From IMG/VR virus record IMGVR_UViG_3300047546_001437, positions 8,667 through 72,666 of that record: a stretch of 64,000 nt of DNA, one strand, 5' to 3'. The notes under the pieces are model-generated. The model was not told where the DNA came from. It searched no databases and saw nothing but the letters and a program-made list of their open reading frames with translations. Shown here piece by piece: positions 5,449 through 53,507 of this stretch. The stretch comes from a virus. Numbering within the stretch: the first letter of the stretch is position 1; each line of letters begins with the position of its first letter. Both the position numbers and the translations under genes were made by a program.

Positions 5449-6330
5449 ATGGACAAAATATTTGTATCTATTGCATCTTATAGAGATCAAGAATTACTAG
5501 ATACTGTTTTTTCTATTTTAAAACAAGCAAAAAATCCAGAAAGACTATTTTTATCAATATTTTCTCAGGATGACAATCACCCAAATTTAGAACACTTGTT
5601 TGAGTTGTTTAACGTGAAACATTATGTTTATAAAAAAATACATTATAGCGATGCTCGTGGTGTTGGTTATGCTAGAGCAGAAACCCAAAAACCTTTAAAT
5701 AATTCTTATAAATATTATTTACAAGTAGACAGTCATACACAGTTTATTGAACACTGGGATGAAAAAATCGTAGATCATTACGAAAAGGCTATAGGGTATT
5801 GGGGAGACCTGATCTTTACAGCCTATCCAGGCACCTATGAGTACACAGAAACAGGCAACCTAAAGTTTGCTACCGTTCTTGTTCCAACATGCCTTAGAAT
5901 CCAACCTGCGACTGAAAACAGCCCAATCAGGTTTGAACCAAAATATAAGGACTATGTTGGCGGAGACATAGGTGAGTTTCATGGATATTTTTGTGCTGGT
6001 TTGGCTTTTGGATACTCTGAACATTTTTTAAAAGTTCCGTATGATGATCAAATTTATTTCAATGGAGAAGAGCAAACACTAGCAATAAGATTTTATTGTA
6101 ATGACATTAAATTGGTTGCTCCACCATACAATTATTGTTTTCATCATTATACTGGTAAAAAACGCATAAGACATTGGGAGCAAAGTGAAACCTGGAAAAA
6201 ATATGATGAAATTGGTACAAAAAGATTAAATGATTTTTACGAATATAAACTAGATGCCACATACGGTATTTCCAATAAAGAAAAGTACCATATGTGGCAA
6301 TCTTGTTTTGTAACTCCTAGAGTTACTTAG
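5449..6330 (+). CDS. GlcNAc transferase, GT60/PF11397-like (Gnt1/TcOGNT-type polypeptide or hydroxyproline alpha-GlcNAc transferase)
   Basis: 'IFVSIASYRD', 'RGVGYAR', 'LQVDSHTQF..HWD', 'VPYD..IYFNGEE..LAIR', 'FHHY' match the GT60 signature as I recall it. Confidence 0.8.
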   Translation: MDKIFVSIASYRDQELLDTVFSILKQAKNPERLFLSIFSQDDNHPNLEHLFELFNVKHYVYKKIHYSDARGVGYARAETQKPLNNSYKYYLQVDSHTQFIEHWDEKIVDHYEKAIGYWGDLIFTAYPGTYEYTETGNLKFATVLVPTCLRIQPATENSPIRFEPKYKDYVGGDIGEFHGYFCAGLAFGYSEHFLKVPYDDQIYFNGEEQTLAIRFYCNDIKLVAPPYNYCFHHYTGKKRIRHWEQSETWKKYDEIGTKRLNDFYEYKLDATYGISNKEKYHMWQSCFVTPRVT

Positions 6331-7546: not shown

Positions 7547-7951
7547 ATGGCAACACTGCGTGGATCTGCTTCTTATTACGATGTAGGAAATAAACCTCCA
7601 ACAGTTTCTTGGACGGTTGTGCGTGGTGATACAGCATCATTTAGAGTCTATGTAACAGATGACGAAAAACAACCCTTAAACATTCCTGACTGGACTATCG
7701 ATATGAAAATTAAACGTCCAAACAATTCATCAGATCTTGGGGTAATTACAGATAATGCAACATTAATACTATCATTAAATCCAGCAGCAGATGCAGATGA
7801 CCTACCAGGCGAATTTACAGTGTCTTTATTATCATCAGAATCACAAATACTTGAAACAGGAGATATCTTTGATATACAGTTGTCAAACGCAGCATATGTT
7901 TGGACAGTGGCTCAGGGTAAGATGACGATTCTTGAAGATGTAACAGATTAA
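7547..7951 (+). CDS. Virion/baseplate protein, BppU-N-like (paralog of 387..812)
   Basis: Shared pattern with 387..812. Confidence 0.55.
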   Translation: MATLRGSASYYDVGNKPPTVSWTVVRGDTASFRVYVTDDEKQPLNIPDWTIDMKIKRPNNSSDLGVITDNATLILSLNPAADADDLPGEFTVSLLSSESQILETGDIFDIQLSNAAYVWTVAQGKMTILEDVTD

Positions 7952-10479: not shown

Positions 10480-10935
10480 TTGGCAACAGTAGATAAAGAT
10501 TTCAAGGTCAAAAACGGACTAGTCGTAAATAACGGCGGTAGTTTTGGAGGTTCAGTAGTAGTTGGAGCACCAACACTTGCTTCACATGCTGCTACCAAAG
10601 AATACGTAGATTCTGTAATAGGCGGAATGGCTGTTGGATCTACCGCTCCTTCTTCACCAGATAATGGTGATTTATGGTTTGATACATTAACAGAAAGAGT
10701 TAATGTATATTATGGTGGCTCTTGGCTAACCATAGCAACAATTGATGATACTTTGAATTTGCCTCAACATATTCACGATACAGCAATTGATGGAACTGGA
10801 TTTATTGTTACAACCTTCCGTGAGGGTGGTAGTTTCAATAGCCCACAGGGCACAGGATTAGATGGTGGAGGACCAGCAAGTACTGTTTGGGCTCAAACAT
10901 TTGACGGTGGCTCACCTGTGGATAACTTCAATTAA
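10480..10935 (+). CDS. Short fibre-associated protein (N-terminus paralogous to 8669)
   Basis: TTG start; MATVDKDFKVKNGL vs MATVTKDFKVKNGL; 'HAATKEYVD' and 'P..P.NGDLWFD' fibre motifs. Confidence 0.65.
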   Translation: MATVDKDFKVKNGLVVNNGGSFGGSVVVGAPTLASHAATKEYVDSVIGGMAVGSTAPSSPDNGDLWFDTLTERVNVYYGGSWLTIATIDDTLNLPQHIHDTAIDGTGFIVTTFREGGSFNSPQGTGLDGGGPASTVWAQTFDGGSPVDNFN

Positions 10936-10942
10936 AAACTGA

Positions 10943-10951
10943 TGTTATAAT
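10943..10951 (+). promoter_or_regulatory. Extended -10 promoter (TGTTATAAT)
   Basis: Upstream of SD AAGGAG and ATG 10994. Confidence 0.65.
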
Positions 10952-10993
10952 AAGATATAAATTCATGGGTAGAACCCATAAGGAGAGATGTAA

Positions 10994-13111
10994 ATGGCAA
11001 CAAGAATGCAACAGCGCAGAGGAACTGCAGCACAATGGACTGCAGCAAATCCAATTTTAGCAGCAGGAGAAATCGGATATGAAACCGACACTGGTAAATT
11101 TAAAATTGGTGACGGTACTAACACTTGGTCTCTCCTCAAGTACTTCCTTAACTTAGAAGCATTAGACATAGATGCAGAGGGCTTTATTACAGATGATCAA
11201 AAAGGCGTTAATAACGGTGTAGCAACACTAGACTCAAATGGTCTTGTTCCAGTTATACAGATGCCAGATCAATATATTACAGATAAAATTATTACAAAAA
11301 TTGGAGAGGTTGTAGGGGCTGCCCCATCAACACTAAATACCCTTAATGAAATTGCAGCAGCATTTGACAACGATCCAAACTATGCAGATACAATTTCTGC
11401 AGCATTAGATTTAAAGGCACCAAAGGCAAGCCCAGCAATTACTGGAACAGCAACATTTGTAAATGCAACATTTAGTGGAGATGTAGATGTTCAAACTATG
11501 CCATTAAATGATAGTTCAACAAGACCTGCTACAACTGCATATGTTTCAGGAAGAATTCAAAATGTTAATACAGTTATATCAACATTAGCATCAGAAATAG
11601 ACGCAAGTCTTGAAACGCTTGGAGCAAACGATGCATCACAGGCAAGTTCTTTAGAAGCGCTTGATGTTCGTTTAGATTCAGCAGAGGCATCAATTACTGG
11701 AAATACAGCATCAATTGCAACAATTAATACAACTCTATCTGACCATACATCAGATATATCAGCATTAGATGTAAGAGTTGACGCAACTGAGTCTGATATT
11801 TCTACAATTAATGCAGATATCACATCTATTGAATCAAATATTGATACAGTAGAAGCAAATATAACAGGAATTCAAAGCGATGTAACAACATTGCAAAATG
11901 ATTTAAATGCTGCAGAAACAGATATCTCAGCATTGCAATCAGGAGCAACAACTACAACATCAACTATTTCAACAATACAAAATAATCTTACATCAATGAG
12001 TACTGAAATAGATGGAATTGATACAAGATTAACAGCAGCCGAAACTGATATTGATGCACTACAAACAAGTGCTACATCAGCAAGTGGACATGCTTCTGCA
12101 ACAACAAATGTTCATGGAATTGCAAATACAGCAGATCTTGCAACAAAGTCTTATGCAGATAATGCTAAGACTGAGGCAATTTCTACTTCAGCAACAGCAA
12201 TTGCCTTAAAGGCAGATATTGCTTCTCCAACATTTACTGGAACAGTAGTTCTTCCAGCAACAACATCTATCGGAACAGTATCTGCAACAGAGATCGGATA
12301 TGTTGATGGTGTAACATCAGCAATTCAAACTCAGTTAGATGCAAAGGCTCCTTTGGCATCACCAGCATTAACTGGTACACCAACTGCTCCTACCGCTACT
12401 GCTGGTACCAATACTACTCAGGTAGCAACTACAGCATTCGTTAAGACTGCCGTTGATAATGTAGTAGCAGCAGCACCTGGTGCACTAGATACTCTTAATG
12501 AGTTAGCAGCAGCACTTGGTAATGATGCAAACTTCTCAACAACATTAACAAACAATTTAGCAGCAAAGGCACCACTTGCTTCTCCAACATTTACTGGAAC
12601 AGTAACATTGCCTTCATCTACAAGTATTGGAAATGTTAGTTCAACAGAAATTGGCTATATTGATGGTGTAACGTCATCAATCCAGACACAATTAGATGCA
12701 AAAGCACCTTCTGCAAGTCCAACACTTACAGGAACAGTTGCTCTTCCAGCAGCATCTTCTGTAACTTTAAATGGTACAGCACTCTCAACAACATTGGCTC
12801 TTAAGGCAGATAATGCAGCAACAATTAACACTATGAGTGGTTCACACACAATTGTTTCTGCAGATGTTAGCAACGTACGTGAAATGAGCAATGGAGGAAC
12901 AATTACAATTCCTTCAGACAACTCTTTCTGGCCAGTAGGAGCAACCATGGATGTTATTCAAACTGGTTCTTCACAAGTAACAATCGGAGCAGGATCTGGA
13001 GTAACATTAAATGCTACACCAGGACTTAAACTTCGTGCACAATGGTCTTCTGCAACAATTCTTAAGAGAGCAGCAAATACATTCGTTGCTCTTGGCGACT
13101 TGTCAGCATAA
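10994..13111 (+). CDS. Tail fibre/spike with Mtd-N-like (major tropism determinant N-terminal) domain, heptad coiled coil and C-terminal adaptor domain
   Basis: 'MQQRRGTAAQWTAANPILAAGEIGYETDTGKFKIGDG'; heptad region; internal duplications 'KAPLASPTFTG..LP..TSIG.VS.TEIGY.DGVTS.IQTQLDAK'. Confidence 0.8.
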   Translation: MATRMQQRRGTAAQWTAANPILAAGEIGYETDTGKFKIGDGTNTWSLLKYFLNLEALDIDAEGFITDDQKGVNNGVATLDSNGLVPVIQMPDQYITDKIITKIGEVVGAAPSTLNTLNEIAAAFDNDPNYADTISAALDLKAPKASPAITGTATFVNATFSGDVDVQTMPLNDSSTRPATTAYVSGRIQNVNTVISTLASEIDASLETLGANDASQASSLEALDVRLDSAEASITGNTASIATINTTLSDHTSDISALDVRVDATESDISTINADITSIESNIDTVEANITGIQSDVTTLQNDLNAAETDISALQSGATTTTSTISTIQNNLTSMSTEIDGIDTRLTAAETDIDALQTSATSASGHASATTNVHGIANTADLATKSYADNAKTEAISTSATAIALKADIASPTFTGTVVLPATTSIGTVSATEIGYVDGVTSAIQTQLDAKAPLASPALTGTPTAPTATAGTNTTQVATTAFVKTAVDNVVAAAPGALDTLNELAAALGNDANFSTTLTNNLAAKAPLASPTFTGTVTLPSSTSIGNVSSTEIGYIDGVTSSIQTQLDAKAPSASPTLTGTVALPAASSVTLNGTALSTTLALKADNAATINTMSGSHTIVSADVSNVREMSNGGTITIPSDNSFWPVGATMDVIQTGSSQVTIGAGSGVTLNATPGLKLRAQWSSATILKRAANTFVALGDLSA

Positions 13112-13116
13112 AACAG

Positions 13117-13125
13117 TAGTATAAT
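13117..13125 (+). promoter_or_regulatory. -10 promoter (TAGTATAAT) heading the 13.15-17.9 kb operon
   Basis: Followed by SD AAGGAG (13135-40) and ATG 13151. Confidence 0.55.
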
Positions 13126-13150
13126 TTAAAAAATAAGGAGATTGATCTAG

Positions 13151-14278
13151 ATGGCACTATCAAGAGGTAAAGGTGGAAGAAACATTAGAAAGGCGTCGGT
13201 GCCTTCCTTTGACCAAACATATACAAGAAGTTCATACCAATCATATTTATCAAGCATTGGTCTGTTTTATTCAGAAAACTCTACCAACACCTCTGATAGT
13301 GGTCTAGATCAGCGCTGGAATTCACAAAATATTGCTCCAGGTACAGTAGTTCCATTTGGAACAACTATTGGTATTAATTACTACATTTATGTATACCCTG
13401 GTTTTAGCCATTATGGTGGTTTCTATCATGGCTTCTATCATGGATTTGGTCACTATGCTGGATTTACACACTATGCAGCATTTAGCCACTATGCTGGTTT
13501 CACACACTATGCAGCATTTGGACACTATGCAGCATTCGGACACTATGCAGCATTCGGACACTATGCTGGATTCTATCATGGTTTCTATCACTCATTTGCA
13601 CACTATTCTTCATTTGCACACTATTCTTCATTTGCACACTACGCAAACTTTAGCCACTACTATAGTGGATTCTCTCATGGTTATGGCGGATTCGGACATG
13701 GTTATGGCGGATTCGGACATGGTTATGGCGGATTCTATCATGGATTCGGACACGGTTATGGCGGATTCGGACACTACGGTGGCTTTGGTGGTGGCGGAGG
13801 TGCCAGAGGCTACTCAATTGGTGGAGAAACTGGTCTATTAAGTCCAACAGGAGTTATCTTGGCTGAAAACTTAAAGGTAGGAGACAAGTTATTAGCACTA
13901 GATATTTCAGAAATAGATATGGCTGGATTTAATCCTTCACAATGGTCTTCAGAAACAATATCTGGAAACGGTATAGTAGAGACAACAGTAGTATCAATTA
14001 ATAGCAGAGTCTCAGATCGTGCTATTGTTATAAATGGAGATATTTACTCTATACATCACTGGATCTTAGCAAGAAAAGATGGCGTTATTAGATTCGTAAG
14101 TTCTTCAGACATAGATACAACATATGAAGTTTATAACTTCCAGACTCTAGACTGGGTCGAGGTTCAGTCTGCTGAAAGTATCGCTTACATTGATAGAGTT
14201 TATACAATTAACTGTGAGCCTTACGATATGTTCTTTACTAACTCAATGTTAGTATATGACCGAGTAGAAACTGACTAA
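13151..14278 (+). CDS. PASTA-like domain + Phe-x-His/Tyr/Gly repeat tract + C-terminal Hint (intein/Hedgehog-like) domain
   Basis: 'VP.F...L.SIGL......SQNIAPGTVVPFGTTI.I' PASTA-like; 22 FxH units; Hint blocks 'SIGGETGLLSPTG...AENLKVGDKL', 'YSIHHWIL', 'VYTINCEPYDMFFTNSMLVYD'. Confidence 0.75.
   Translation: MALSRGKGGRNIRKASVPSFDQTYTRSSYQSYLSSIGLFYSENSTNTSDSGLDQRWNSQNIAPGTVVPFGTTIGINYYIYVYPGFSHYGGFYHGFYHGFGHYAGFTHYAAFSHYAGFTHYAAFGHYAAFGHYAAFGHYAGFYHGFYHSFAHYSSFAHYSSFAHYANFSHYYSGFSHGYGGFGHGYGGFGHGYGGFYHGFGHGYGGFGHYGGFGGGGGARGYSIGGETGLLSPTGVILAENLKVGDKLLALDISEIDMAGFNPSQWSSETISGNGIVETTVVSINSRVSDRAIVINGDIYSIHHWILARKDGVIRFVSSSDIDTTYEVYNFQTLDWVEVQSAESIAYIDRVYTINCEPYDMFFTNSMLVYDRVETD
13403..13790 (+). 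repeat. Degenerate 12/18/21-bp tandem repeats encoding FYHG, FxHYAA/AG/SS and FGHGYGG
   Basis: e.g. GGACACTATGCAGCATTC and GGATTCGGACATGGTTATGGC units read directly. Confidence 0.9.
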
Positions 14279-14279
14279 T

Positions 14280-15026
14280 TTGGCCAGACTACCCAATCAC
14301 GATTACTATTCTGATGAGTGGGCAAACGAACCATTCATAATACCTGATCAATTATTGGCATTACAGCAAAAAAGAATTGGCAGTGCAACACCATATAGCA
14401 TAAGCCCTCAAATTGCAACATTTACTAGAAAGTATAGTGAAAAAATACAAAATGCTCCAGATCACGATGCTGTAGAATTTGCAAAATATGAGGTAGATTG
14501 GCAAAAAGAATATCGTGAGCAAAAACATTTATTTGTTCCGCAAAATCGATGGGCACATGAAGTTGTTGAGCCACCAGTTCACATAAAAGATAATTTATAC
14601 AAAATAAATGTATCTGCTGATGTTTATCCACATTTAGAACCTTTAGAGCATCAGTATGAAGAATCTGGAACAATCATACGTGAAAAAGAATATAGGTTTA
14701 TTACTAGAACACTTTATAAGTATGTGGATGCTACAAAAAATGTTGTTTTGGAAAAGGATTTAGATCCAGAGTGGTGTTCGAGAGTTTATGTTTGGAAAAT
14801 TAGATGGCTACCACAAAAACCAGCAGTTTTAACATTTTTTTCAAATGAGGATATGGTATACTGGAAGACACCAGAAACAATAGTTGATACAAAAGATATT
14901 GCAGAAGATGCACAAGGAGTGATAGACGTGCCAGTTATATTTAAAAAAGGACTTAAGCGCAGTATGCACTACATAAAGCATGATACAACAATACTATATA
15001 TGAAGGTAGATTTTCATGAAGAATAA
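14280..15026 (+). CDS. Hypothetical protein, possibly a diverged member of the family at 15016 and 15732
   Basis: TTG start 1 nt after upstream stop; C-terminal 'VWKIRW...VIFKKG...IKHDTTILYM' echoes 'VWDMRW...FLRKDFEGTIKKGTPIMSI'. Confidence 0.55.
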   Translation: MARLPNHDYYSDEWANEPFIIPDQLLALQQKRIGSATPYSISPQIATFTRKYSEKIQNAPDHDAVEFAKYEVDWQKEYREQKHLFVPQNRWAHEVVEPPVHIKDNLYKINVSADVYPHLEPLEHQYEESGTIIREKEYRFITRTLYKYVDATKNVVLEKDLDPEWCSRVYVWKIRWLPQKPAVLTFFSNEDMVYWKTPETIVDTKDIAEDAQGVIDVPVIFKKGLKRSMHYIKHDTTILYMKVDFHEE

Positions 15027-15732
15027 AACAAACATTATAACATTTATACCTAAAAATGAATTTGTTATAGAGTATACAGATAAACCAGAACCTATGATAA
15101 AAAATCTTCCTTCTTGGTGGAGAAAGGTTCATCCATATGTTAATGGAGAAAAAACTTTACGTAATGGTCAATATAGTGAGACTGTAAAAAAGTGTCCTGG
15201 AATATTAGATTTGCTATCTACAGGATATTTATTAAAAACACCATGCGATATTTTTCTAGATGCAACTGGACCAAAACTAGATTGGCAAGTTCACCATGCA
15301 CACAAAGAATCTGTTACAGTTCATTCTCAACCACAAGTTGAAGGCTGGGATTTTGACAAAAATGATTGGATGGAAGATATATTTAGAATTCATCCAATGT
15401 GGGTAGTAGCAACAGAAAAAGGTTATAGTACTTTATTTGTGCAGCCATCATTTCATACAAGCCTACCATTTGAAATAGTTCCAGCAATTATTGATACAGA
15501 CATGTATCCTTCAGATGGACCATTCTCTATGAGAGTTAAAAGAGGCTTTAAAGGTGTCCTAGAGGCAGGAACTCCACTAGTTCAATGTATTCCTTATAGA
15601 AGAGAAAAGTGGGAAGCAAATATACTTGAAAAGCCAGATTTGAAAGTTTTAAACTCTATACCTTGGAAATTAAGGCATAAGTTTGGCGGGGCATACAAAA
15701 AACTTATGTGGGAAAAGAAGGTGTTTAATTAA
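15016..15732 (+). CDS. DUF6065-like protein (dUTPase-like C-terminal pattern), paralog 1
   Basis: 'LP.WW.K...TVKKCPGILD..STGY', 'W.V.T.KGYS.LF..P', 'IIDTD', 'F.G.LEAGTPLVQCIP.RRE.W'. Confidence 0.6.
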   Translation: MKNKTNIITFIPKNEFVIEYTDKPEPMIKNLPSWWRKVHPYVNGEKTLRNGQYSETVKKCPGILDLLSTGYLLKTPCDIFLDATGPKLDWQVHHAHKESVTVHSQPQVEGWDFDKNDWMEDIFRIHPMWVVATEKGYSTLFVQPSFHTSLPFEIVPAIIDTDMYPSDGPFSMRVKRGFKGVLEAGTPLVQCIPYRREKWEANILEKPDLKVLNSIPWKLRHKFGGAYKKLMWEKKVFN

Positions 15733-16493
15733 TGGATAAATTTGAAGAAAGATATGCAAACCCAGAACCACTTGAAAATTTAAAGGTTCAGTTTTATACA
15801 TCTAATGCATATGTAAATACAACTCCTGGTCCAGTGCCAGCAATTGACAATCTTCCAGAATGGTGGAAGGATCGTCCTATATATCAAAAAAATGATCAAA
15901 TTGATAGACTATCTATCATGAATAATCGTGGTGCAGATGCTGCATCAATTAGTGTAAAGCATTGTATGCCATTTTTTGATGCAATAACTTGTGGATATCA
16001 TTATTTATTGCCAACAGATGTTCATGTTGCAAAAACAGAAGACCCAGATAGACCAGATATTTGGTGGGATGAAGATGCTCCAAGACCAATTGAGATGCGT
16101 GGTCATTTAGAGTTACCAGTTCCATCTGGATGCTATCCAATTCATTTTGTTTGGGATATGAGATGGGGAACAAAGATGCCAGACGGATGGTCTGCAATGA
16201 TCACACACCCTATAGACAGATATGATTTACCATTCTTTACTATGACAGCCATACAGGATTCTGACAGATGGTTTACTGGAAACGTTGTTACCTTCTTTTT
16301 AAGAAAAGATTTTGAAGGTACAATTAAAAAGGGTACACCAATAATGTCAATTATTCCAATAAAAAGAGCAAACTGGAATATGGAAATAGACCATTCCCTA
16401 CAAACTGAGGGTTTATGGGATCTTGAAAGAAAAAGAAATTACATTTATGGATTTTATAAAAAACATAGATGGATCAGAAAGAAATATAGATAG
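15732..16493 (+). CDS. DUF6065-like protein, paralog 2
   Basis: 'LPEWWK...SVKHCMPFFDAITCGY', 'W..K.PDGWS.MITHP', 'IQDSD', 'FEGTIKKGTPIMSIIPIKR..W'; TAATG-coupled. Confidence 0.6.
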   Translation: MDKFEERYANPEPLENLKVQFYTSNAYVNTTPGPVPAIDNLPEWWKDRPIYQKNDQIDRLSIMNNRGADAASISVKHCMPFFDAITCGYHYLLPTDVHVAKTEDPDRPDIWWDEDAPRPIEMRGHLELPVPSGCYPIHFVWDMRWGTKMPDGWSAMITHPIDRYDLPFFTMTAIQDSDRWFTGNVVTFFLRKDFEGTIKKGTPIMSIIPIKRANWNMEIDHSLQTEGLWDLERKRNYIYGFYKKHRWIRKKYR

Positions 16494-16501
16494 GATAAAT
16501 A

Positions 16502-17164
16502 ATGGAAAAACATTACGAATATGGTGATGCTAATCAACCAAGTAATAGCAAGTCTACTAAAGAGCATAAATTCTTCGATAGAAATATAGAGATTAATAAT
16601 CTTGAACAACTTGAGAAATTATTAATTACTCAATATGAAAGAATTAATCGTGGAGAGATTATTAAGGGGAACAAAAATGAGCATACCCCTTGGGATCAAT
16701 CTGGTAGTGCAACTACAATAAATTGGAATAAGTATAATGTCTTTCAATTCTATGATGAGAATATCTATACTCTTTTCAGAGCGGTAAGAGACATGACAGT
16801 TGATGCTTGTCAGCATTATGAATTAGATTTTATAAAAGAACAATTTTATGTTCAGGGATGGTTCAATGTTAACTATAACCATATTGGAAAGTTAGATTGG
16901 CATGAACATGGTGGAGAAGGTGCACCACATTTCCATGGCTATTATTGTGTAAAGGCAGAGCCATCTAAAACTCATTATAGAGTTTTTGAAAAAGAAATTG
17001 AAGTAAATAATAAAAATAACCGTGCCATTCTTTCAGAAACTGGCCATCCTCACGCAATGGGTGACTGGGATTGGGATGGACCAAGAATCACAATAGCATA
17101 TGACGTAATTCCACTAAGATTTATACCAAAAGAGTGGGAACAACACTGGATACCACTAATCTAA
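16502..17164 (+). CDS. 2OG-Fe(II) oxygenase-like (double-stranded beta-helix) protein
   Basis: 'QGWFNVN...WHEH...FHGYYCV...HPHAM......RITIAYD': HxH, distal His and RxT 2OG-binding pattern. Confidence 0.7.
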   Translation: MEKHYEYGDANQPSNSKSTKEHKFFDRNIEINNLEQLEKLLITQYERINRGEIIKGNKNEHTPWDQSGSATTINWNKYNVFQFYDENIYTLFRAVRDMTVDACQHYELDFIKEQFYVQGWFNVNYNHIGKLDWHEHGGEGAPHFHGYYCVKAEPSKTHYRVFEKEIEVNNKNNRAILSETGHPHAMGDWDWDGPRITIAYDVIPLRFIPKEWEQHWIPLI

Positions 17165-17291: not shown

Positions 17292-17633
17292 ATGCGTATA
17301 GCATCTTTAACTTTCTTAATGCTATTAGTATCTTTGATGGTAGGTTTAGTGATCTATAAATATACTATAGACACAAGACTTACCATTAAAGAACTAAAAA
17401 AAGATCGTGATACCTATAGAAATAATATTTGGAATTTCATGAAGGGTATGGATAAAGAAAGAAAACGTATGGAACAAATAAATGAACAAACAAATAATTT
17501 GGCCTATACTAATTTAAAGAAAAAGATTAAAAAACTTCATGATGACATAGAGGATACAGATTTTACAACTTTTGAAAATGTAAAAGAAGAAATTTTGTCT
17601 TCATTAAAGGATATAGACTCATATGGCGATTAG
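17292..17633 (+). CDS. Membrane-anchored coiled-coil protein
   Basis: N-terminal hydrophobic helix followed by charged helical region. Confidence 0.6.
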   Translation: MRIASLTFLMLLVSLMVGLVIYKYTIDTRLTIKELKKDRDTYRNNIWNFMKGMDKERKRMEQINEQTNNLAYTNLKKKIKKLHDDIEDTDFTTFENVKEEILSSLKDIDSYGD

Positions 17634-33362: not shown

Positions 33363-36300
33363 ATGGCTGATATTCAGTCAAATATTCAAGTAAATATAGA
33401 TACGTCGGAAGCGTTAGCAAGTATAAAGGCGCTTCAACGACAGATATCAGCCTTTCACACCTCAATGGCAAAAAGTGGTGCTGCTGCTGCTGCAGTATCC
33501 GCTAACTTACAACAAAACTTAGTTAACTCTCTTAATGCTACTGGTAAGTTTGCAGCAGAGATGCGAACAATTCGCACAAGTACAGAATCATTTACAAATT
33601 CTTTAGAAAAAAATAAATTTACAATGCGGGAATACTTCCGCTATGCTGGTGCATCAACAAAAACCTTTGGCAGACTTTTTAGATCCGAATTTGATACTAT
33701 TGAAAAGGTTGCTCGTGAAAGAGTAAAAACTTTACAAACACAATACATAAAGATGGGCCGTGATGCCAACGGTGCAATGAAGGCAATTGCTGTTAGACCT
33801 CTTGCACTCGATATGGAAAATCTTGCTACAAAAACTCAAATTGCAGCACAAAGACAGCAACTCCTAAATCAACTTCTTAAGCAAGGCTCTACAAATCTTC
33901 TAAATTTTGGTAAGAATACACAGTGGGCTGGTCGTCAGTTAATGGTTGGTTTCACAATTCCTTTGATGTATCTTGGCACTGCAGCATCTAAAACATTTAT
34001 GAAATTAGAAGAGCAGGCTATTAGATTTAAGCGTGTTTATGGTGAAATGTTTACAACTGGACAAGAGACAGACAAGATGCTCAAAGAGGTTCAGTTACTT
34101 GCAAAAGAGTTTACAAAGTATGGCGTTGCTGTTGAAAAAACAATGGAAATGGCTGCAACTGCAGCAGCAAGCGGTAAAATGGGAGCAGACTTACTTGCAC
34201 AAGTAAATCAGGCAACACGACTTGCAGTTCTTGGTGGAGTAGAGCAAGAGCAAGCACTCGAGACAACAATTTCATTAACTAATGCTTTTGGTGTAGCAGC
34301 AGAAGATTTAACTAAAAAGATTAACTTCCTTAACGCAGTTGAAAATCAAACTGTTGTATCTATTGAAGACTTAACAGTTGCAATTCCAAAGGCTGGACCA
34401 GTGGTTCAACAATTGGGTGGAGACGTAGAGGATTTAGCATTCTTCCTAACTGCCATGAAGGAAGGTGGAATTAATGCATCAGAAGGTGCCAACGCACTCA
34501 AGTCTGGTCTTGCATCATTAATTAATCCAACTAAAAAAGCAAGCGCAATGCTTGCTGATATGGGAATTAATATTACAGGAATTGTTGAAGCAAACAAGGG
34601 TAACGTAAAGGGAGTAGTTGTTGAATTTGCTAAAGCATTAGATACTCTAGATCCACTAAATCGTGCTCGTGCAATTGAGCAGTTATTTGGCAAGTTCCAG
34701 TTTTCACGTTTGTCTACATTATTTCAAAATGTTATTGCACAAGGCAGTCAGGCAAGTCGTGTTTTATCTTTAACACAGGCAACCACTGAAGAGTTAGCAA
34801 TTCTAGCAGAACGAGAATTAAAGCGTGTTGAAGAATCCCCAATGTATAAATTTAAGAAATCTATTGAAGATCTTAAAGTTACTCTTGCGCCAGTAGGAGA
34901 AGCATTCCTTAAGGCTGTAACACCAATTGTAGAATTTGTTGCAAAAATATTAGATAAGTTTAATAACTTAGGTGATGGTGCCAAAAACTTTGTTGTTATT
35001 TTAACAACTGTTCTTGCTGGTATTGGTCCAGTAGCACTTATGACATTTGGTTTGCTTGCAAACGGATTAGCAAACATTATTAAACTGTTTACAAGTGTTA
35101 AAAGTTTATTTAATCGTGTAGGACAGTCATCTCAAACACTTGGTGCCACAACCGAATACATGACACAAGAACAACTACAGGCTGCTGCAGTAGCGTCGTC
35201 GCTTGATCAAGTTCATAATAAATTAATACAAACATTTACATCTGAAAGAAATGCACTTACTGCTTTAATTGCTGCATATCAAAGAGCAGTTGCAGCACAA
35301 GCAGCATTTATGCCAGTTGCTGGAATGGTTCGTGGCAAGGGTGGTCCAAAGAAATTTAATAAGGGTACAGTTGGTGTACGTTATTATGCTAATGGAACAG
35401 ATACAGTTCCAGCAATGCTAACTCCTGGTGAAGCAGTAATTCCTGCAGGACCAGCACAACATCCAGCCAATAAACCAGCAATTGCATACATGGTTGCAGG
35501 TGGTATTCTTGGACAACATGCTACTGGAACCACAAAAATTGTTGGAGACAGATCTGTTGGTTTTGGTGGAAAGCAGTTTGTTGCATCTACCAGTGCCAGC
35601 GTTATTGGAATTCAGAATTTAATTAAAGATGCACAAAGACTATCTGGTGTAATCTCAAATATAGACGATTTAATTTTACAGGCATTGAATGAAGCAGTAA
35701 ACGCAATTAACTCAAAGGGTAAAGTTTCTATTAAAAACTTTAAGTCTGCACTTGCAACTGTGGGTGGCGGAGCAATTCCTATGGGCAAAACAACAAAGGC
35801 TTATCAAGGTGGATTTGCTGGAAATGCTGGAGTTGTTGCTGCACACGGAACTCCTGGTGTAGTTCTTTCTGCATCTCAGGCAAATAAACTTGGAGCACAA
35901 CTAGCCCCAGGTGCAGTGGCAAGTCAATTAATGCAAACAACTGGAAATGTAAGAATGCTTTCAAACATGACATTCCCAATGCCAGCATCATTTAATAAAG
36001 GACAAATGACTGGTGCAGAAGGTGCAAAATGGGTTGGACAAAATAGAGCAAGATTTACATCTATGATTGCACAACAGCATGGCTTAAGTCCAAATGATCC
36101 AGGACTACTTGAGTTTGGAAAAATTATTGGACAAGCCTTAAAACGTATGGGTAATACTGTTGTTAGCGAAAGTCAGTTTGAAGAGATTATTGAACAAGGA
36201 CTAAAGAGAGATCTTGATGCAGCAGCAAAGGGAGCATTATTAAAGTCTAAGAATACATTTGCAACTGCACAAATTGGTGGATTTGCTGGACGTGCAGGAC

Positions 36301-39300
36301 ATGGTGGAATACAAAGAGTAAATCTTCCAGCAAATGCAGCAGGACAAAGTTTTGCTGGACTTAATTTAGGTGGAAGAAGTTATAGGTCTCAAAATATTGC
36401 TCAATACAATGAACAGGCAGATAAGTTTGTAGTAAAAAGAGTTAGAGAACGTGCAAAGAGATTTGCAATTACAACTGCAACAGCATTTGAGTCTGGAATA
36501 AAAGAAGTTCTTCAGGTCGCATCTCCTTCAAAGAGAATGCAAAAAATTGGACAAGACTCTGGTCGTGGTCTTATTCTTGGAGCACAAGAGTTTGTAGATG
36601 ATGCAAGAGCAGCAGGACAACAAATTGGTGGCGCTGCTGCACAAGGAGTGATGAGCCAATCTCAAAAGATTGCAGCCTCAAGAACAGCACTTTATGGAAC
36701 TGGGCCAATAGATCCTGCACAGAAATCAATAAGAAGACAATTAGAAAAACAAGAAAGACTTCGTGCTATTCAAGAAAGAAGAATGCTTCAGCAAAGTACA
36801 GTTGCTGGAATGGTAGCAGGCGGAGCAGGAGTAAAGAATGCACCAGCACCTGCCGATCCAGATGGTCCTGGAACTACTAGAGGAAGAATGGGTGCTGGAA
36901 CAGGAATGATGGCAGCATCTGGGGTTATGATGGCAGCATCAATGGCACCAGGAAAAGTTGGCGAGGTAGCACAAAAATTAATGATGCCATTAATGACATT
37001 AACAATGCTCCTTCCATTAATTCAAAGCCCATTGGGAGCATTTGCAGTTGGTTTAACAGCAGTTGTTGCAGCAACCCTTGCTCTAAGGATGGCATTTGAC
37101 AAAGCACAAGATAATGCAATGAAAATGGCTGAAGCCATGGGTAGTGGTGAAAAGGCCATTCAAGATTTATCTGAGTTTGCTGGAACTGCTCGTGCTGGAG
37201 AAATTATGGATAAGAGAAGGTCAAATGCTCTTTCACAATTCCAGGTTCAACCAGGAAAGACTACATTTGGACAAGCATATGTTCAGTCTGAACAAGGCAA
37301 GGCAATGCTTAAGAATATAACAGAAACAATGCAGACTGGTGGTAAGGGTGCTGCTAAGAGCCAACTAATTAATCAATTAACAACTGGTGTTGCATCTGGT
37401 GCAATCACTGTAGAACAAGCAAGAAGTATGGCAGCAAACATATCACAGCAACTAGGAGATTATGGTTTTGGAATACAGGTAAGTGCAAAGTTAACTGAAT
37501 TGCTTGGTGTTAATGGAGAAAACTTACAGAAAGATCCATTAACGCTTAGAGTAAGATTGGTAGAAGAATCAAGAAAAGATTTGCAATCAAAATCTAAACT
37601 ACTCAACACTGCTGCCCCAGGAGCATTGACACAAACACAAGGTAAGGTCCAAATGGCTGGTCTTGGTGCTGTAGGAGCCATAGCAGGAGGCAGTTTAGCA
37701 GCAGGTGCATTAGCGGGTGCAACAGCAGGATCTGTAGTCCCAGTAGTTGGAACTGCAATTGGTGCTGCGATTGGTGCAACAATTGCTGCAGGTGTTGGAT
37801 ACTTTGCTCAAAAAGGTCAGCAGGAAAAACTTGGTCGTGCTTCTGGAGCACATGTTGCAATGCAAAAAATGGCATTAGAACAAAGTCAAGAAATGCAAGA
37901 TTCACTTAGACTTGAATACGAACAAAGAATTGCTAATGCTAAGGCAGCAGGAGACACTGCTGAAGCAATAAGATTACAAGGAGAGTATGAGGCAGCAAAT
38001 GCTAAACTACTTGCTGAAAATGGAAGACTTGTAACGGATATACAGACGACATATGCTAATGCATCAGGTGCGGTTAAGGGAGCACTTGAAACTGGTGTTG
38101 ATAAAGCAATCACACAAAAATACAAGGGTACAGCAATGGAAGACATTGCACCAATGGCAAAAGATTTAATTAATGATAGTGGGCTATCTAAAGAGCAGCA
38201 ATATACATTAAAGATGCAAGTTGCATCTGGCAATATGGACCCAATGCAAATTGTAAATCTTATGGATTCATTTGGAAAAGATCAACAAACACTTACAAAG
38301 GTAATGGAAATTGTTACAAAATTTGGTGGAACTTTTGCAAATCAAGCGATGTCTATATCTAGTTTGTTTGTCGACAAAGATGGTAAGCCACTTAAGAAAC
38401 AACAGACAAAGTTTATTGCAGATATTAGTACTAAGACTCCAGCAGAAGCAGAAAAATATCTAAATCTATTTACTCAAATTGGCAAAGTCGGACAATCTGA
38501 ACTTGTAGATCTTGGAGTTGCACTAACATATTATAATAATAATCCAGAAGCAGCACAAAAACTAGATGAAACTATTAATAAGATTAATGAACAAAAAGGA
38601 AAGATAAGTCTTGATATTGCAACAAAAATTGTTGGTGCAAAGGAAATGGAAGTTCTTAGAGCAAATCAGGAATACTTTAACTCTCTTCCACCAGAACAAC
38701 AAAAGATATACTTGCAAACACTAACAACTGTTGTTAATATGGAAGGTAATAATAAAGATGCAGTTCAGGCTTGGCTTAAGGCAAATCCTGGAAAAACAGA
38801 ATTAGATTATTATGGTCAAGCAACATACCAAGTAACAAAAACATCTTCAGACTCAACAACTAAACCAACTGGCAAAACTCCAAGCAGTGCAGGTAAGGCA
38901 GAGTCCTCCGTTCTTGACGACCTATTAAAGAAATTAAGAGATGTTAGAAAGAATCAGATTAAGGTTACTGAAGGCTGGGGCGCTTCTCGTAAAGCATTAG
39001 AAAGTTTGTTTGGTGGAAAGAAAACAATTACAGCATTTAGTGGTATAGAGCAAGACTTAAGAAAACTTGGTGCTGGACAAAATCTTATTGAACTTATCAT
39101 TGGTATGGATCCAAAAGAATATGAGAAACGTAAAAAATCTTTATTTAAGTTTGATAATAAAGGAAATATTATTGGTCTAAAAAGAGATGCTAAGAATATT
39201 CAAGAAGCACTCAATTCAATAGTTGCTGGACAGTTCCAGTCAGGAATCGAAGAGCAGAGACAAGGAATTATAGATCAAAATAAAGCATTTGAAAAACTAT

Positions 39301-41450
39301 CACAACTAGGAGTTCCAGTAGGAAAGGCGTATGAACTTATTGCTGATAAATCTTTTAGAGCAATGATTGCTACCGCTAAAAATAAAAAAGAACTTAAGTC
39401 AATGATTGACCTTTATAATAAATTTATTAAAGAGCAAGCAGCAAGTGATGCTGTCGCAGATGCAAATAAGGCTTTAGAAGATTTTGGCAAAGACTTTAAT
39501 TTAACTGAAAAAATTAAAATGAATTTTTCATACGAAGAAGCCCAAGCAATATTTGCAGACCCAGTACTTAAAGCATTGGTAGAGGCTGGTCAAGAGGGCT
39601 CTGAACAATTTAAAAAACTACTAGAAGCAAGAATGAGCACTATTGACTTTATGCAGGGAATATTTGATGACGGATTTAATAAAGCGATGGAATGGTTTGA
39701 TGTACAAGAAAAATCAATTCAACTAGACTTTGAATTGGGAACAAACATTAGTGGAAAAAATACTGTATCAGATGCTCTTGCCAAACTTTATGAAGGTACC
39801 CCAGTATTTACTGGTCCAGATGGAAAACCAATTTTAACTTTTAATCTTGAAGCAGATGCAAAGAATATATTAAAGTATGAAGATGAAGTTGCAAGAATGC
39901 AATACCAGATTGATGACTGGGAGTATTCGTTAAAGGAAATTGAAGATCAAGAAAATAAAATTAATGAATCTTATGATGCTAAATATAAAGCATTAGATGC
40001 AATTGCACAAGTTAATGCTAGAATAACTCAGCAAAATAAATCACAGTTAACTATTGCAGATGCTTTAGCGCAAGGAGATATTGCAGCAGCAGCAAAGGCT
40101 GTTCAAGAAGCACGTGCTCAAGCAGCACAAAACGCAATAGATGACCAAAAGAAGGCTTTAGATCAGGCAAAAGAAAACGCATTGGCCAATGTTAGAAATT
40201 CTCAAGGCTTTACAAGAGTTCAGATAGAAGAAAAAATAAAAAATCTTCAGGATGAAATTGCAAAGATTGAAGAGGCACAACTTGAGCCAGCAAGAGAAAG
40301 AAATAGACTTGCAGAAGTATTAAAGGAGCAGGCTGTTTCTACTTTAGAAGTTCTTGGAAAAACACGTACCGAATGGGAGCAGGTAAAGAACGGTATTGAT
40401 TTGGCAAGAGTAACGAGCAAAGAATATCTTGCTGCAATGCAGGCTGCCCTTGATATTGTAGATAAAATTAAGAAATACTGGAATGATTTAAATAATAAAG
40501 AATATAAGACTTATCATAAAATAATAACAACCTTTGAATCAGGAACTGGTGGACCAGGTCCAGAGACACCACCAGTAGAACCACCACCATTTGTTCCGCC
40601 ATCTGGTCCATATACTGCGCCAGACGATCCATTTATTCCTAGTGGTGGATACACCGCTCCAAGTGGTTCAACGAATGGTTCAAAGGGAGGCTCATCAGGA
40701 GGATCGACAAATAAAGGTTCTTATTCAGCACCTGGCACAGACATTAATTATGGTTTAAATACTGGTGGATCCACTGCTGCACTACATTTACAAGATTTAG
40801 CAAGATTGGCAAATGCTGTAACAGTTGCTAATATTACAAAAAATGCTGGACAGACTGCTGGTCAGCATGTTAATGATTTATTAAATATGAATGCTAGAGC
40901 AGATGCATTTTCAAAAGAAATAATTAATGCTAATGTAAAAAAGATGGGTTCAACTGCATACGGACATCTAGACGAACTCACAAACACTCCAGCACAAAAA
41001 GCAGCATCAGCAGCAGCCTTCGCTGCAGAGGCAAAAGCAGCAGCAGCAAAGAAAGCAGCAGAGGAAGCAGCAAAGAAAAAGGCTGCAGCAGATATTAAAA
41101 AGTTTGGTGGAAATGCAATAGCAGCATCACAGTTTGCAAATTGGCCTAGTGGAAAAGCATCTGGTGGATTAATTAAAAGATTTGCCTTGGGTGGACCAAT
41201 TATAGGAACCGATGTTGTTCCAGCAATGTTGACACCAGGTGAATTTATAATGAGCAGATATGCGGTCGAGTCATTTGGTGTAGATAAGATGAAGGCTATT
41301 AATAGCGGAACATATGATTCTGGTTCAGTGTATAATTATAACTTAAGCGTAAACGTAAGGTCTGACGCAAATCCAGATCAGATTGCAAATACTGTTATGG
41401 CAAAAATACGACAGATTGATTCGTTGAGGCTGAGAGGCGGAAGAATGTAA
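33363..41450 (+). CDS. Tape measure protein (2695 aa)
   Basis: TP901-type core ('LAAMKEGGI.ASEGANALKS'-like 'LTAMKEGGINASEGANALKSGL'), 'ASPSKRM' motif, TM segments, coiled coils, C-terminal 'GTDVVPAMLTPGEF'. Confidence 0.92.
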   Translation: MADIQSNIQVNIDTSEALASIKALQRQISAFHTSMAKSGAAAAAVSANLQQNLVNSLNATGKFAAEMRTIRTSTESFTNSLEKNKFTMREYFRYAGASTKTFGRLFRSEFDTIEKVARERVKTLQTQYIKMGRDANGAMKAIAVRPLALDMENLATKTQIAAQRQQLLNQLLKQGSTNLLNFGKNTQWAGRQLMVGFTIPLMYLGTAASKTFMKLEEQAIRFKRVYGEMFTTGQETDKMLKEVQLLAKEFTKYGVAVEKTMEMAATAAASGKMGADLLAQVNQATRLAVLGGVEQEQALETTISLTNAFGVAAEDLTKKINFLNAVENQTVVSIEDLTVAIPKAGPVVQQLGGDVEDLAFFLTAMKEGGINASEGANALKSGLASLINPTKKASAMLADMGINITGIVEANKGNVKGVVVEFAKALDTLDPLNRARAIEQLFGKFQFSRLSTLFQNVIAQGSQASRVLSLTQATTEELAILAERELKRVEESPMYKFKKSIEDLKVTLAPVGEAFLKAVTPIVEFVAKILDKFNNLGDGAKNFVVILTTVLAGIGPVALMTFGLLANGLANIIKLFTSVKSLFNRVGQSSQTLGATTEYMTQEQLQAAAVASSLDQVHNKLIQTFTSERNALTALIAAYQRAVAAQAAFMPVAGMVRGKGGPKKFNKGTVGVRYYANGTDTVPAMLTPGEAVIPAGPAQHPANKPAIAYMVAGGILGQHATGTTKIVGDRSVGFGGKQFVASTSASVIGIQNLIKDAQRLSGVISNIDDLILQALNEAVNAINSKGKVSIKNFKSALATVGGGAIPMGKTTKAYQGGFAGNAGVVAAHGTPGVVLSASQANKLGAQLAPGAVASQLMQTTGNVRMLSNMTFPMPASFNKGQMTGAEGAKWVGQNRARFTSMIAQQHGLSPNDPGLLEFGKIIGQALKRMGNTVVSESQFEEIIEQGLKRDLDAAAKGALLKSKNTFATAQIGGFAGRAGHGGIQRVNLPANAAGQSFAGLNLGGRSYRSQNIAQYNEQADKFVVKRVRERAKRFAITTATAFESGIKEVLQVASPSKRMQKIGQDSGRGLILGAQEFVDDARAAGQQIGGAAAQGVMSQSQKIAASRTALYGTGPIDPAQKSIRRQLEKQERLRAIQERRMLQQSTVAGMVAGGAGVKNAPAPADPDGPGTTRGRMGAGTGMMAASGVMMAASMAPGKVGEVAQKLMMPLMTLTMLLPLIQSPLGAFAVGLTAVVAATLALRMAFDKAQDNAMKMAEAMGSGEKAIQDLSEFAGTARAGEIMDKRRSNALSQFQVQPGKTTFGQAYVQSEQGKAMLKNITETMQTGGKGAAKSQLINQLTTGVASGAITVEQARSMAANISQQLGDYGFGIQVSAKLTELLGVNGENLQKDPLTLRVRLVEESRKDLQSKSKLLNTAAPGALTQTQGKVQMAGLGAVGAIAGGSLAAGALAGATAGSVVPVVGTAIGAAIGATIAAGVGYFAQKGQQEKLGRASGAHVAMQKMALEQSQEMQDSLRLEYEQRIANAKAAGDTAEAIRLQGEYEAANAKLLAENGRLVTDIQTTYANASGAVKGALETGVDKAITQKYKGTAMEDIAPMAKDLINDSGLSKEQQYTLKMQVASGNMDPMQIVNLMDSFGKDQQTLTKVMEIVTKFGGTFANQAMSISSLFVDKDGKPLKKQQTKFIADISTKTPAEAEKYLNLFTQIGKVGQSELVDLGVALTYYNNNPEAAQKLDETINKINEQKGKISLDIATKIVGAKEMEVLRANQEYFNSLPPEQQKIYLQTLTTVVNMEGNNKDAVQAWLKANPGKTELDYYGQATYQVTKTSSDSTTKPTGKTPSSAGKAESSVLDDLLKKLRDVRKNQIKVTEGWGASRKALESLFGGKKTITAFSGIEQDLRKLGAGQNLIELIIGMDPKEYEKRKKSLFKFDNKGNIIGLKRDAKNIQEALNSIVAGQFQSGIEEQRQGIIDQNKAFEKLSQLGVPVGKAYELIADKSFRAMIATAKNKKELKSMIDLYNKFIKEQAASDAVADANKALEDFGKDFNLTEKIKMNFSYEEAQAIFADPVLKALVEAGQEGSEQFKKLLEARMSTIDFMQGIFDDGFNKAMEWFDVQEKSIQLDFELGTNISGKNTVSDALAKLYEGTPVFTGPDGKPILTFNLEADAKNILKYEDEVARMQYQIDDWEYSLKEIEDQENKINESYDAKYKALDAIAQVNARITQQNKSQLTIADALAQGDIAAAAKAVQEARAQAAQNAIDDQKKALDQAKENALANVRNSQGFTRVQIEEKIKNLQDEIAKIEEAQLEPARERNRLAEVLKEQAVSTLEVLGKTRTEWEQVKNGIDLARVTSKEYLAAMQAALDIVDKIKKYWNDLNNKEYKTYHKIITTFESGTGGPGPETPPVEPPPFVPPSGPYTAPDDPFIPSGGYTAPSGSTNGSKGGSSGGSTNKGSYSAPGTDINYGLNTGGSTAALHLQDLARLANAVTVANITKNAGQTAGQHVNDLLNMNARADAFSKEIINANVKKMGSTAYGHLDELTNTPAQKAASAAAFAAEAKAAAAKKAAEEAAKKKAAADIKKFGGNAIAASQFANWPSGKASGGLIKRFALGGPIIGTDVVPAMLTPGEFIMSRYAVESFGVDKMKAINSGTYDSGSVYNYNLSVNVRSDANPDQIANTVMAKIRQIDSLRLRGGRM

Positions 41451-53504: not shown

Positions 53505-53507
53505 TTG

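Follow-up and report, generated by a model that had tools for sequence, protein, structure and literature searches.

A Phe-x-His repeat set between a PASTA-like domain and a C-terminal Hint domain in the tail-fibre module of an uncultured freshwater phage

What could a run of 22 Phe-x-His triplets be doing in a phage protein? The question is raised by one open reading frame (ORF) in a 64,000-nucleotide stretch of DNA, hereafter the window, taken from IMG/VR virus record IMGVR_UViG_3300047546_001437. The ORF lies on the plus strand at 13151..14278 and encodes 375 residues; an earlier note on this DNA, made from the letters alone, had drawn attention to its Phe-x-His (FxH) tract. The decisive context goes beyond that note: the tract stands directly before a C-terminal Hint domain, and the gene belongs to a tail-fibre module. 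On the evidence of the ORF list and of homologues the protein has three parts, and we hold with high confidence that these are a PASTA domain, then the FxH tract, then the Hint domain. In our best reading, a PASTA domain of the peptidoglycan-binding type is linked to Hint by a charge-free, aromatic segment of low complexity, which in this lineage takes the form of the FxH tract.

The tract is encoded in frame 1 of this ORF and consists of 22 F-x-H units, arranged in repeats of 4, 6 and 7 residues and followed by a single F-G-G (13403..13792, plus strand; residues 85-214). The interval first proposed for it, 13403..13790, starts correctly and stops inside the last codon, the tract running on to 13792. 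Its 130 residues are 34 Gly, 23 Phe, 23 Tyr, 22 His, 15 Ala, 10 Ser, 2 Thr and 1 Asn, with no Asp, Glu, Lys, Arg or Pro, and a Phe stands two residues before every one of the 22 His, which bears out the earlier description of a strict register free of charged residues and proline. The residue between Phe and His is Gly in eight triplets, Tyr in five, Ser in four, Ala in three and Thr in two; the His-to-His spacing is 6 (11 times), 4 (five times) or 7 (five times). The unit lengths, the usual Tyr or Gly-Tyr after His and the varied codons had also been noticed correctly. Tyr follows His in 13 of the 22 units and Gly-Tyr in four, the remaining five being F-Y-H-[G/S] units with Tyr as the middle residue, and the codons are mixed for both Phe (TTC 13, TTT 10) and His (CAC 14, CAT 8). 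Since composition-preserving shuffles of the tract never exceeded 12 FxH triplets (100,000 shuffles, none reaching 22), the arrangement is far beyond chance. Tandem Repeats Finder reports periods of 12, 18, 21 and 36 in the DNA, with 80-100% matches. Overlapping ORFs across the repeat, such as 13356..13841 on the plus strand and 13322..13591 on the minus strand, were set aside as by-products of the repetition, frame 1 alone being conserved among homologues. C-ending Phe and His codons are favoured in the tract (20 other window genes together use TTC 81 and TTT 456, CAC 43 and CAT 122), Tyr codons stay TAT (20 of 23), and the GC content is 44%, against 36.6% for the window. The tract has no match among PDB sequences at E<=10.

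Is it the peptide or the DNA repeat that has been kept? Homologues were collected as 31 protein clusters by a word-indexed search and as 71 viral loci by a scan of IMG/VR, one of which (L001) is identical to the window. The earlier note had named the loss of the F-x-H register among homologues as the observation that would count against a functional motif. FxH runs occur in 37 distinct proteins, whose 473 tract His are all in register, as are 473 of 484 Phe, and whose 2412 tract residues include two that are charged and no Pro. The number of FxH copies ranges from 3 to 26, and the flanking domains of proteins that keep the register fall to about 30-40% identity. The comparison of synonymous with non-synonymous change that had been suggested was run by the Nei-Gojobori method on codon alignments of eight non-saturated pairs. 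It gave a ratio of non-synonymous to synonymous substitution (dN/dS) of 0.09-0.14 for the tract, at a proportion of synonymous differences (pS) of 0.36-0.69, which puts synonymous sites near saturation; for the same pairs the PASTA part gave 0.07-0.31 and the Hint part 0.10-0.18. In an alignment of 32 homologues (A2), relatives have acquired or dropped units. The Phe, His and Tyr of the tract are under purifying selection, with fast gain and loss of units, and the view that selection acts on the peptide motif, not slippage alone, is upheld. Pure slippage is untenable because the strict alphabet and register persist when the flanks have diverged to about 30-40% identity. A search with the tract only (5.8 billion proteins, 206-657 aa) returned nine matches, all from the same family, and near-identical DNA is present in riverine, freshwater and estuary metagenomes from several studies. 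In four public short-read runs the contigs all break between about 13533 and 13744 and none bridges the tract, so the repeat number in published assemblies of this phage group may be mis-stated.

The N-terminal part, residues 14-82 (13190..13396, plus strand), is identified as PASTA-like by its AlphaFold2 fold and by a family profile. It is modelled as strand-helix-strands at a predicted local distance difference test score (pLDDT) of 77-88, and residues 10-85 stand at about 80-88 in the full-length model. The family profile (A6) matches PASTA domains of Ser/Thr kinases in the PDB (3m9g, E 6.3e-6; 3py9, 1.9e-5; 2kui, 5.5e-5), and one homologue, P0007, reaches 33.4 bits with the Pfam PASTA model (PF03793), whose cut-off is 23.2. 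The window protein alone has no match in Pfam, PASTA and Hint/intein models included; its membership of the PASTA family, as a sequence match together with a beta-alpha-beta fold of about 65 residues, comes through the family profile and the homologues. In PHROGs, residues 237-370 alone find a match, to phrog_38766, 'virion structural protein', while the best matches in BFVD carry the automatic names 'PASTA_pknB domain containing protein' and 'Hint domain containing protein' (uncultured Caudovirales).

The C-terminal part, from residue 222 to about 370 (13814..14260, plus strand), has the Hint fold of intein and bacterial intein-like (BIL) domains by AlphaFold2, Foldseek and profile comparison. 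The domain model, built on an alignment of 50 C-terminal parts (A1), has a pLDDT of 90.3 and a predicted template modelling score (pTM) of 0.84, and residues 222-370 stay above 86 in the full-length model. Foldseek against the PDB gives 48 matches at E<=1e-3, of which those listed are nearly all inteins, BIL or Hedgehog domains. At the top are 2lwy, a BIL domain of Clostridium thermocellum (5.9e-7), and 6y75, the BUBL BIL2 of Tetrahymena (2.8e-6), followed by inteins (gp41-1, DnaB, DnaE and others) and the Hedgehog structures 6tyy (4.3e-4) and 1at0 (8.8e-4); template modelling (TM) scores reach 0.78 on the target side, with 0.64-0.65 on the query side. The sequence profile of the domain points the same way (2lwy, 1.1e-4; gp41-1 intein, 1.6e-3).

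A Gly-rich junction, G-G-G-A-R-G-Y (residues 215-221; 13793..13813, plus strand), leads from the tract into the domain, and alignment A2 puts Tyr221 at position -1 of the bond predicted to be cleaved. The junction and the S222-I-G-G-E-T-G-L-L-S-P-T-G that follows it align with intein block A, Ser replacing Cys, which makes Ser222 (13814-13816, plus strand) the candidate position-1 nucleophile; its column (Y-S-I-G-G) is conserved at >=90% in A1. Column conservation also picks out block B, S300-I-H-H303 (His codon 14057-14059, plus strand), and Cys355 in the near-invariant strand I-N-C-E-P (14213-14215, plus strand), the single conserved Cys and the only Cys of the protein. A HMMER pass with the 160-residue domain against 1.84 billion cluster representatives (clusters at 50% identity) found 151 proteins at E<=1e-3, 82 of them at <=1e-10. 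When 152 domain hits from the cluster representatives were re-aligned to the profile, position 1 was Ser in 64, Cys in 32 and Phe in two, the other 54 being unaligned (fragments or short alignments); Ser or Cys thus occupies position 1 in 96 of 98 aligned domains. Block B has Thr or Ser in 135 of the 152 and His in 120, and the last strand ends in Asp (77) or Asn (55). The horseshoe beta fold, the position-1 nucleophile and the block B T/S-x-x-H that define the Hint superfamily are all present. Cys355 tends to go with Ser at position 1, occurring in 50 of 64 Ser1 members and in 7 of 31 Cys1 members (Fisher p 3e-7, uncorrected for phylogeny), and may be a second or relay nucleophile.

Does the arrangement of repeat and Hint domain extend beyond this lineage? 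In nearly all listed hits (151 clusters) the Hint match ends within about 10 residues of the protein end, and the 60-70 residues before it are, in the representatives, typically charge-poor short tandem repeats rich in Phe, Tyr, Pro and Gly, such as FTPFG, PFFPP, GAFGAF, NPGF, PPYDN, polyPro, GFYGGF and YYAP. A 3-mer repeated >=4 times occurs in the 60 residues before Hint in 55 of 89 representatives, compared with 4 of 80 for the first 60 residues; the corresponding median fractions are 5% and 13% for charged residues and 20% and 8% for aromatic ones. Since the segment before Hint is rich in His in just one of the 89, the FxH form is a rare variant. The N-terminal domains vary across the family, being PASTA or one to three FN3. 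By tblastn, seven jumbo-phage records (Erwinia and Dickeya phages) also contain the Hint part, at 27-28% identity. One of these, gp108 of Dickeya phage vB_DsoM_AD1 (AXG67152.1, 'putative tail protein'; L073:4984-6423), adjoins two 'putative tail fiber' genes and combines collagen-like G-X-Y repeats with a C-terminal Hint domain that has Cys1, T-H-E-H and A-H-N followed by 10 residues. Here a fibre-type protein with a Hint cap is available from a cultured phage.

Given this architecture, what would the Hint domain and the tract do? We propose that the Hint domain would undergo an N-to-O acyl shift at Tyr221/Ser222, that the resulting ester would be hydrolysed or handed to another nucleophile so that the Hint cap comes off, and that a PASTA-plus-tract product of about 221 residues would be released or attached. 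Judging from the conserved residues, processing at Tyr221/Ser222 is moderately probable. The tract itself would be a disordered, self-adhesive tether, almost uncharged and prone to collapse at pH 8 but polycationic at pH 5-6, and changes in pH or in metal ions could switch it close to the cell wall, to which the PASTA domain would bind. Its charge, computed with an assumed pKa of 6.3, is about 0 at pH 8, about +15 at pH 6 and +21 at pH 5, and residues 86-218 have a pLDDT of 28-41 and no secondary structure in the full-length AlphaFold2 monomer model. The Hint cap may hold this sticky segment soluble until assembly, and the tract may be modified by products of a co-inherited gene cassette that includes a 2-oxoglutarate (2OG)-oxygenase-like gene. 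We put forward the switchable-tether role as a tentative suggestion, and for the complete package, a self-processing Hint cap joined to a switchable tract tether, we would allow nearly even chances. It is tempting to go further and imagine a phage protein adhesive system in which the Hint ester is passed to a nucleophile on the fibre or the host wall, a ligation like that of Tetrahymena BIL2 or Hedgehog, co-inherited oxygenase-type enzymes modify His or Tyr, and the tract becomes a covalently anchored glue or tether that responds to pH or metals during adsorption; this we regard as quite improbable. If it were true, a single, hitherto undescribed mechanism of virion maturation would be served by exchangeable repeat cartridges of different chemistry (FxH, FTPFG, NPGF, GAF, polyPro), each paired with enzymes of its own.

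Several observations weigh against our proposal. The protein ends in ...L-V-Y-D-R-V-E-T-D, with Tyr-Asp in place of His-Asn and with no C-extein. Because the terminal His-Asn is absent, processing could be N-terminal only, and an N-terminal acyl shift followed by hydrolysis or transfer is, to judge from the residues conserved, the possible chemistry that remains. In nine of the 32 sequences of alignment A2 (P0014-P0022) the position-1 Ser and the block B His are lost, the His being now Tyr, and the Cys is partly lost; these proteins retain 5-8 F-x-H units, mostly F-Y-H (for example at locus L070:6001-6819), so the repeat can work without an active Hint domain. They are a natural 'dead-cap' control. 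The low pLDDT of the tract is no proof of disorder, as an oligomeric or metal-loaded fold would escape a monomer model too. The term 'virion structural protein' is a database label only, carried by a distant jumbo-phage relative. Alignment within the repeat biases both the dN and the dS from which the tract ratios derive, and contigs from two RNA libraries cover the flanks of the gene without amounting to proof of transcription.

The virus record measures 72.7 kb and is estimated to be 67% complete. The window carries genes for a portal, a prohead protease, a major capsid-like protein and a class II ribonucleotide reductase (RNR), and it represents a large siphophage-type genome of an uncultured freshwater phage. 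Its tape-measure gene, within 33363-41450, encodes 2695 residues, from which we infer a very long tail; a phage Pol III alpha gene with PHP, NTPase, finger and HHH domains lies at 53505-56783, and there are also DnaB, primase and RecA/UvsX genes. Directly upstream of the 375-residue ORF is a tail-fibre gene (10994..13111, plus strand; 705 residues) with an N-terminal Mtd_N domain (Pfam, E 3.1e-15) and tail-fibre matches in PHROGs (for example phrog_454, E 6.8e-41), and Hint proteins of the FGA and NPGF repeat types likewise lie directly downstream of a tail-fibre gene. Between the two genes we read a TATAAT-like hexamer (13120-13125), a candidate promoter, and a Shine-Dalgarno AAGGAG (13135-13140), together 13120..13140 on the plus strand, the latter 10 nt ahead of the ATG at 13151. 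The order in 13 distinct FxH-type loci is w8206, a fibre-like gene of 593 residues, w10480, the Mtd_N tail fibre, the Hint protein, a cassette of small genes, and RNR. Compared with the window, the downstream RNR is 87-96% identical in FxH-, FGA- and one other-type locus, whereas the Hint protein is 25-76% and the fibre 32-59% identical. Given how low the fibre and Hint identities are beside those of RNR, the Hint gene lies in a hypervariable and presumably host-recognition region. In the NPGF-type loci RNR is upstream and only 28-30% identical to that of the window. Paralogous small genes of phrog_1084, at 387-812 and 7547-7951, bracket the fibre-gene region. Megablast of 10900-16600 against cultured phages gave no match, and a tRNA scan found none. 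Species-representative bacterial and archaeal genomes scanned with one peptide pattern from A2 gave four matching stretches, none of them confirmed, and so no pointer to a host, a weak negative.

Could the Hint fold be doing something other than chemistry? As a non-catalytic virion-docking module, it would make the protein a Hoc-like decoration or side fibre that displays a PASTA adhesin on an aromatic tether, with nothing being cut. The P0014-P0022 proteins fit this, as they keep both the Hint domain and the repeats without the Ser, the His and partly the Cys; the distant relatives from jumbo phages bear the label of a virion structural protein or a tail protein in phrog_38766 and RefSeq, and the FN3 or PASTA N-domains of the family are of adhesin type, as in decoration proteins. 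A pure docking module would not be expected, however, to have Ser or Cys in all but two of the aligned position-1 residues and the block B His in 120 of 145, and a further point against it is that the domain, in nearly all listed hits, closes the protein directly after a repeat. We consider docking without cleavage unlikely, though a serious competitor to the self-processing cap.

The other serious competitor starts from the genes downstream. Here the tract would be mainly a substrate: the cassette would hydroxylate, cross-link or decorate the His, Tyr or Phe of F-x-H-Y, and the modified polymer would be the product, an idea that can be combined with Hint processing. On the plus strand the cassette begins with a 248-residue gene (w14280; 14280..15026) that has no Pfam, PHROG or PDB match and is found beside FxH-type proteins only. 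It is followed by two paralogous genes of 238 and 253 residues (15016..16493; phrog_7084, E 5.2e-40 and 4.9e-27) with a weak link to DUF6065, which is seen in 6 of 25 members of the phrog_7084-type family (best E 0.0015) and, in the Atlas clusters of such genes, in 12% of members. The next gene, of 220 residues (w16502; 16502..17164), is 2OG-Fe(II)-oxygenase-like by the language-model features of Atlas, and this is a lead only: 22 of 30 Atlas hits fall in clusters with PF13759 (2OG-FeII_Oxy_5), at a score of 0.96, with no Pfam hidden Markov model (HMM) match in 17 members and no PDB sequence match. A 113-residue gene (w17292; 17292..17633), with a weak, below-cut-off match to DUF3473 (E 6e-4), is co-inherited with the FxH type. 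Profiles of the DUF6065-like genes (A3), w16502 (A4) and w14280 (A5) found nothing meaningful among PDB sequences, and hhalign found no relation of A5 to A3 or A4.

The cassette tracks the repeat type. Counting distinct loci with at least 4 kb downstream only, all 11 FxH loci carry w14280, two DUF6065-like genes, w16502 and w17292; w14280 is found in 0 of 7 FGA and 0 of 7 NPGF loci. The seven NPGF loci all have another set (N180, N174, a gene that is prolyl-4-hydroxylase-like by eye, and a distant relative of w16502), and the FGA loci have a DUF6065-like gene in 7 of 7 and N180 and G138 in 6 of 7. In NPGF and GAF sister loci (L022:7070-9915; L032:6505-8160), a 219-residue protein reads like a prolyl-4-hydroxylase and one of 165-180 residues seems, by its sequence, to carry an acetyltransferase-like motif. 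With RNR 87-96% identical between FxH and FGA phages, which are otherwise close, the Hint protein and the cassette are exchanged as one block. A gene of the N-acetylglucosamine (GlcNAc) glycosyltransferase family (5449-6330; PF11397, E 1.6e-36; phrog_24687), 7 kb upstream in the same fibre-gene region, could also act in decoration. Block exchange fits repeat modification, but this is linkage only: the three types are separate lineages too, so that the counts are not phylogenetically independent, and the cassette enzymes are without HMM or PDB sequence support. We know of no enzyme class that acts on F-x-H, and 2OG-oxygenase genes are regarded as common near phage fibre genes. The suggestion in the earlier note of an enzyme-recognised motif survives in a weaker form only, as the co-inheritance of a cassette containing a 2OG-oxygenase-like gene in 11 of 11 FxH loci, and modification as the main purpose of the tract seems improbable to us.

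More doubtful still is an ordered rod. The tract might fold only as an oligomer, with Phe and His stacked on one strand face and, in the manner of the T4 gp37 needle, layers of His that bind Fe, Zn or Ni. The tail-fibre setting and the 22 regularly spaced His are in keeping with this, Phe and His two residues apart would share a strand face, and HxH-iron fibres, established in T4, have been proposed in marine phages in the available portion of PMC11705849. Against it, the tract has no HxH, mixes units of 4, 6 and 7 residues, varies from 3 to 26 copies and is modelled as a monomer at a pLDDT of about 30 without strands; moreover, in sister proteins the place of the tract is taken by repeats of polyproline, FTPFG, NPGF or GAF, which cannot share one fold. 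A homotrimer prediction for residues 78-228, run without controls, scored 0.00 and speaks neither for nor against self-association. A collagen-like reading of the tract was dropped, its Gly showing no period of 3 in units of 4, 6 or 7 residues, as were a left-handed beta-helix (hexapeptide) and polyglycine II, whose fixed register the mixture of units breaks. A neutral, slippage-made spacer with no sequence-specific role would explain the perfect 18- and 21-bp DNA repeats, the gain and loss of units and the short-read contigs that break in the tract, yet it is very hard to credit with dN/dS about 0.1 at a pS of 0.36-0.69, every His in register down to about 30% flank identity, and an alphabet limited to G/F/Y/H/A/S. 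Weakest of all, and virtually to be discounted, is a ribosomally synthesised and post-translationally modified peptide whose F-x-H core motifs would be cross-linked by a P450 or radical-SAM enzyme: the parallel that had been drawn with biarylitides and triceptides comes down to aromatic-x-His spacing, with Phe and not Tyr as the aromatic residue, in a tract between two folded domains of a 375-residue protein, not a short precursor, and no radical-SAM, P450 or YcaO family was found among 55 window ORFs (Pfam) or 48 (PHROGs).

Irrespective of whether the cap cuts, docks or does both, why should this family be of interest? Hint domains have so far been described in inteins, in Hedgehog and in a small number of proteins from bacteria and ciliates, and the Hint superfamily, PASTA domains and His-rich or aromatic low-complexity polymers are each known individually. 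In the literature searched, as far as its accessible text goes, we found no description of a PASTA-tract-Hint combination in a phage fibre-module protein, of a strict G-F-x-H-Y repeat, or of a family-wide rule of an aromatic or proline repeat followed by a C-terminal Hint domain. The 151 clusters are a large, unstudied Hint set capping fibre-module proteins of uncultured phages, outside the known Hint roles, and the FxH form is a clean test case, with one His per unit, perfect register and purifying selection. Should the cap prove to cut or ligate, virion proteins would have a maturation pathway new to biology, and ATP-free ligation would gain a natural tool. Should the tract respond to pH or metals, just 130 residues would make up a switchable polymer encoded by a gene, and would offer a fresh view of how phages cling to cell walls.

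Which known systems come closest? C-terminal maturation of fibre proteins has a parallel in the Peptidase_S74-type intramolecular chaperone domains of tail spikes and fibres, which are believed to cleave themselves off at a conserved Ser once assembly is complete. Fold and chemistry are of another kind there, with a Ser-Lys dyad as opposed to the predicted Hint N-O acyl shift here, and no homology between the two was found. In phage phiCbK, the Hint domains spoken of in the text at hand (PMC3556154) all belong to ordinary inteins, those of TerL and RNR. With T4 gp37 the tract shares a regular His motif in a tail-fibre module, and differs in having one His per unit and no predicted trimeric beta structure; as stated above it has no HxH, and the gp37-type iron repeat was rejected.

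For the tract itself, the nearest likeness is to the squid-beak proteins HBP-1/2, with repeats of GHGxY and GAGFA, which use the same G/H/Y/F/A alphabet in uncharged, short tandem units. In these proteins, as the available text of PMC6884462 describes, His deprotonation followed by clustering of Tyr and other aromatic residues drives pH-dependent coacervation, which is the kind of switch proposed for the tract. The phage motif, unlike theirs, is G-F-x-H-[G]-Y with an invariant Phe, and its tract is flanked by folded domains; the proteins are unrelated, and no sequence match was found. An HBP-type repeat, taken as at least four GHGxY or two with spacers, was rejected, the tract having no GHGxY and units of F-G-H-G-Y-G-G or F-x-H-Y-x-x.

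For the cap, a parallel exists in the Hedgehog Hog domain, where a Hint module at the C-terminus frees the sequence ahead of it by way of a (thio)ester, and which our domain matches structurally (1at0 and 6tyy); here Ser stands for Cys in a phage and not an animal protein, and with only about five residues after the last strand and no sterol-recognition region, a Hog domain was not accepted. A canonical intein was likewise rejected, as the domain ends the protein without His-Asn and without a C-extein or +1 nucleophile. Cys355 recalls the block-F cysteine of class-3 inteins as presented in the accessible part of PMC2807308, but the columns differ by hand alignment. BIL domains are the closest relatives, giving the best structural and sequence-profile matches (2LWY, 6Y75) and sharing the position-1 Ser/Cys and the block B T/S-x-x-H. 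According to the portion of PMC7765530 open to us, they sit in hypervariable, non-conserved proteins and cleave rather than splice, as the present domain is predicted to do. An A-type BIL was not accepted, Tyr-Asp taking the place of the C-terminal His-Asn. Unlike BILs, our domain forms the extreme C-terminus of a phage fibre-module protein, has Ser1 for Cys1, ends in ...V-Y-D plus five residues and carries the extra conserved Cys (I-N-C-E-P) linked with Ser1. Whether such a domain would release its partner or join it to something else, a precedent for ligation over hydrolysis is provided by Tetrahymena BIL2, which, in the text available from PMC8616854, transfers its N-terminal partner to lysines.

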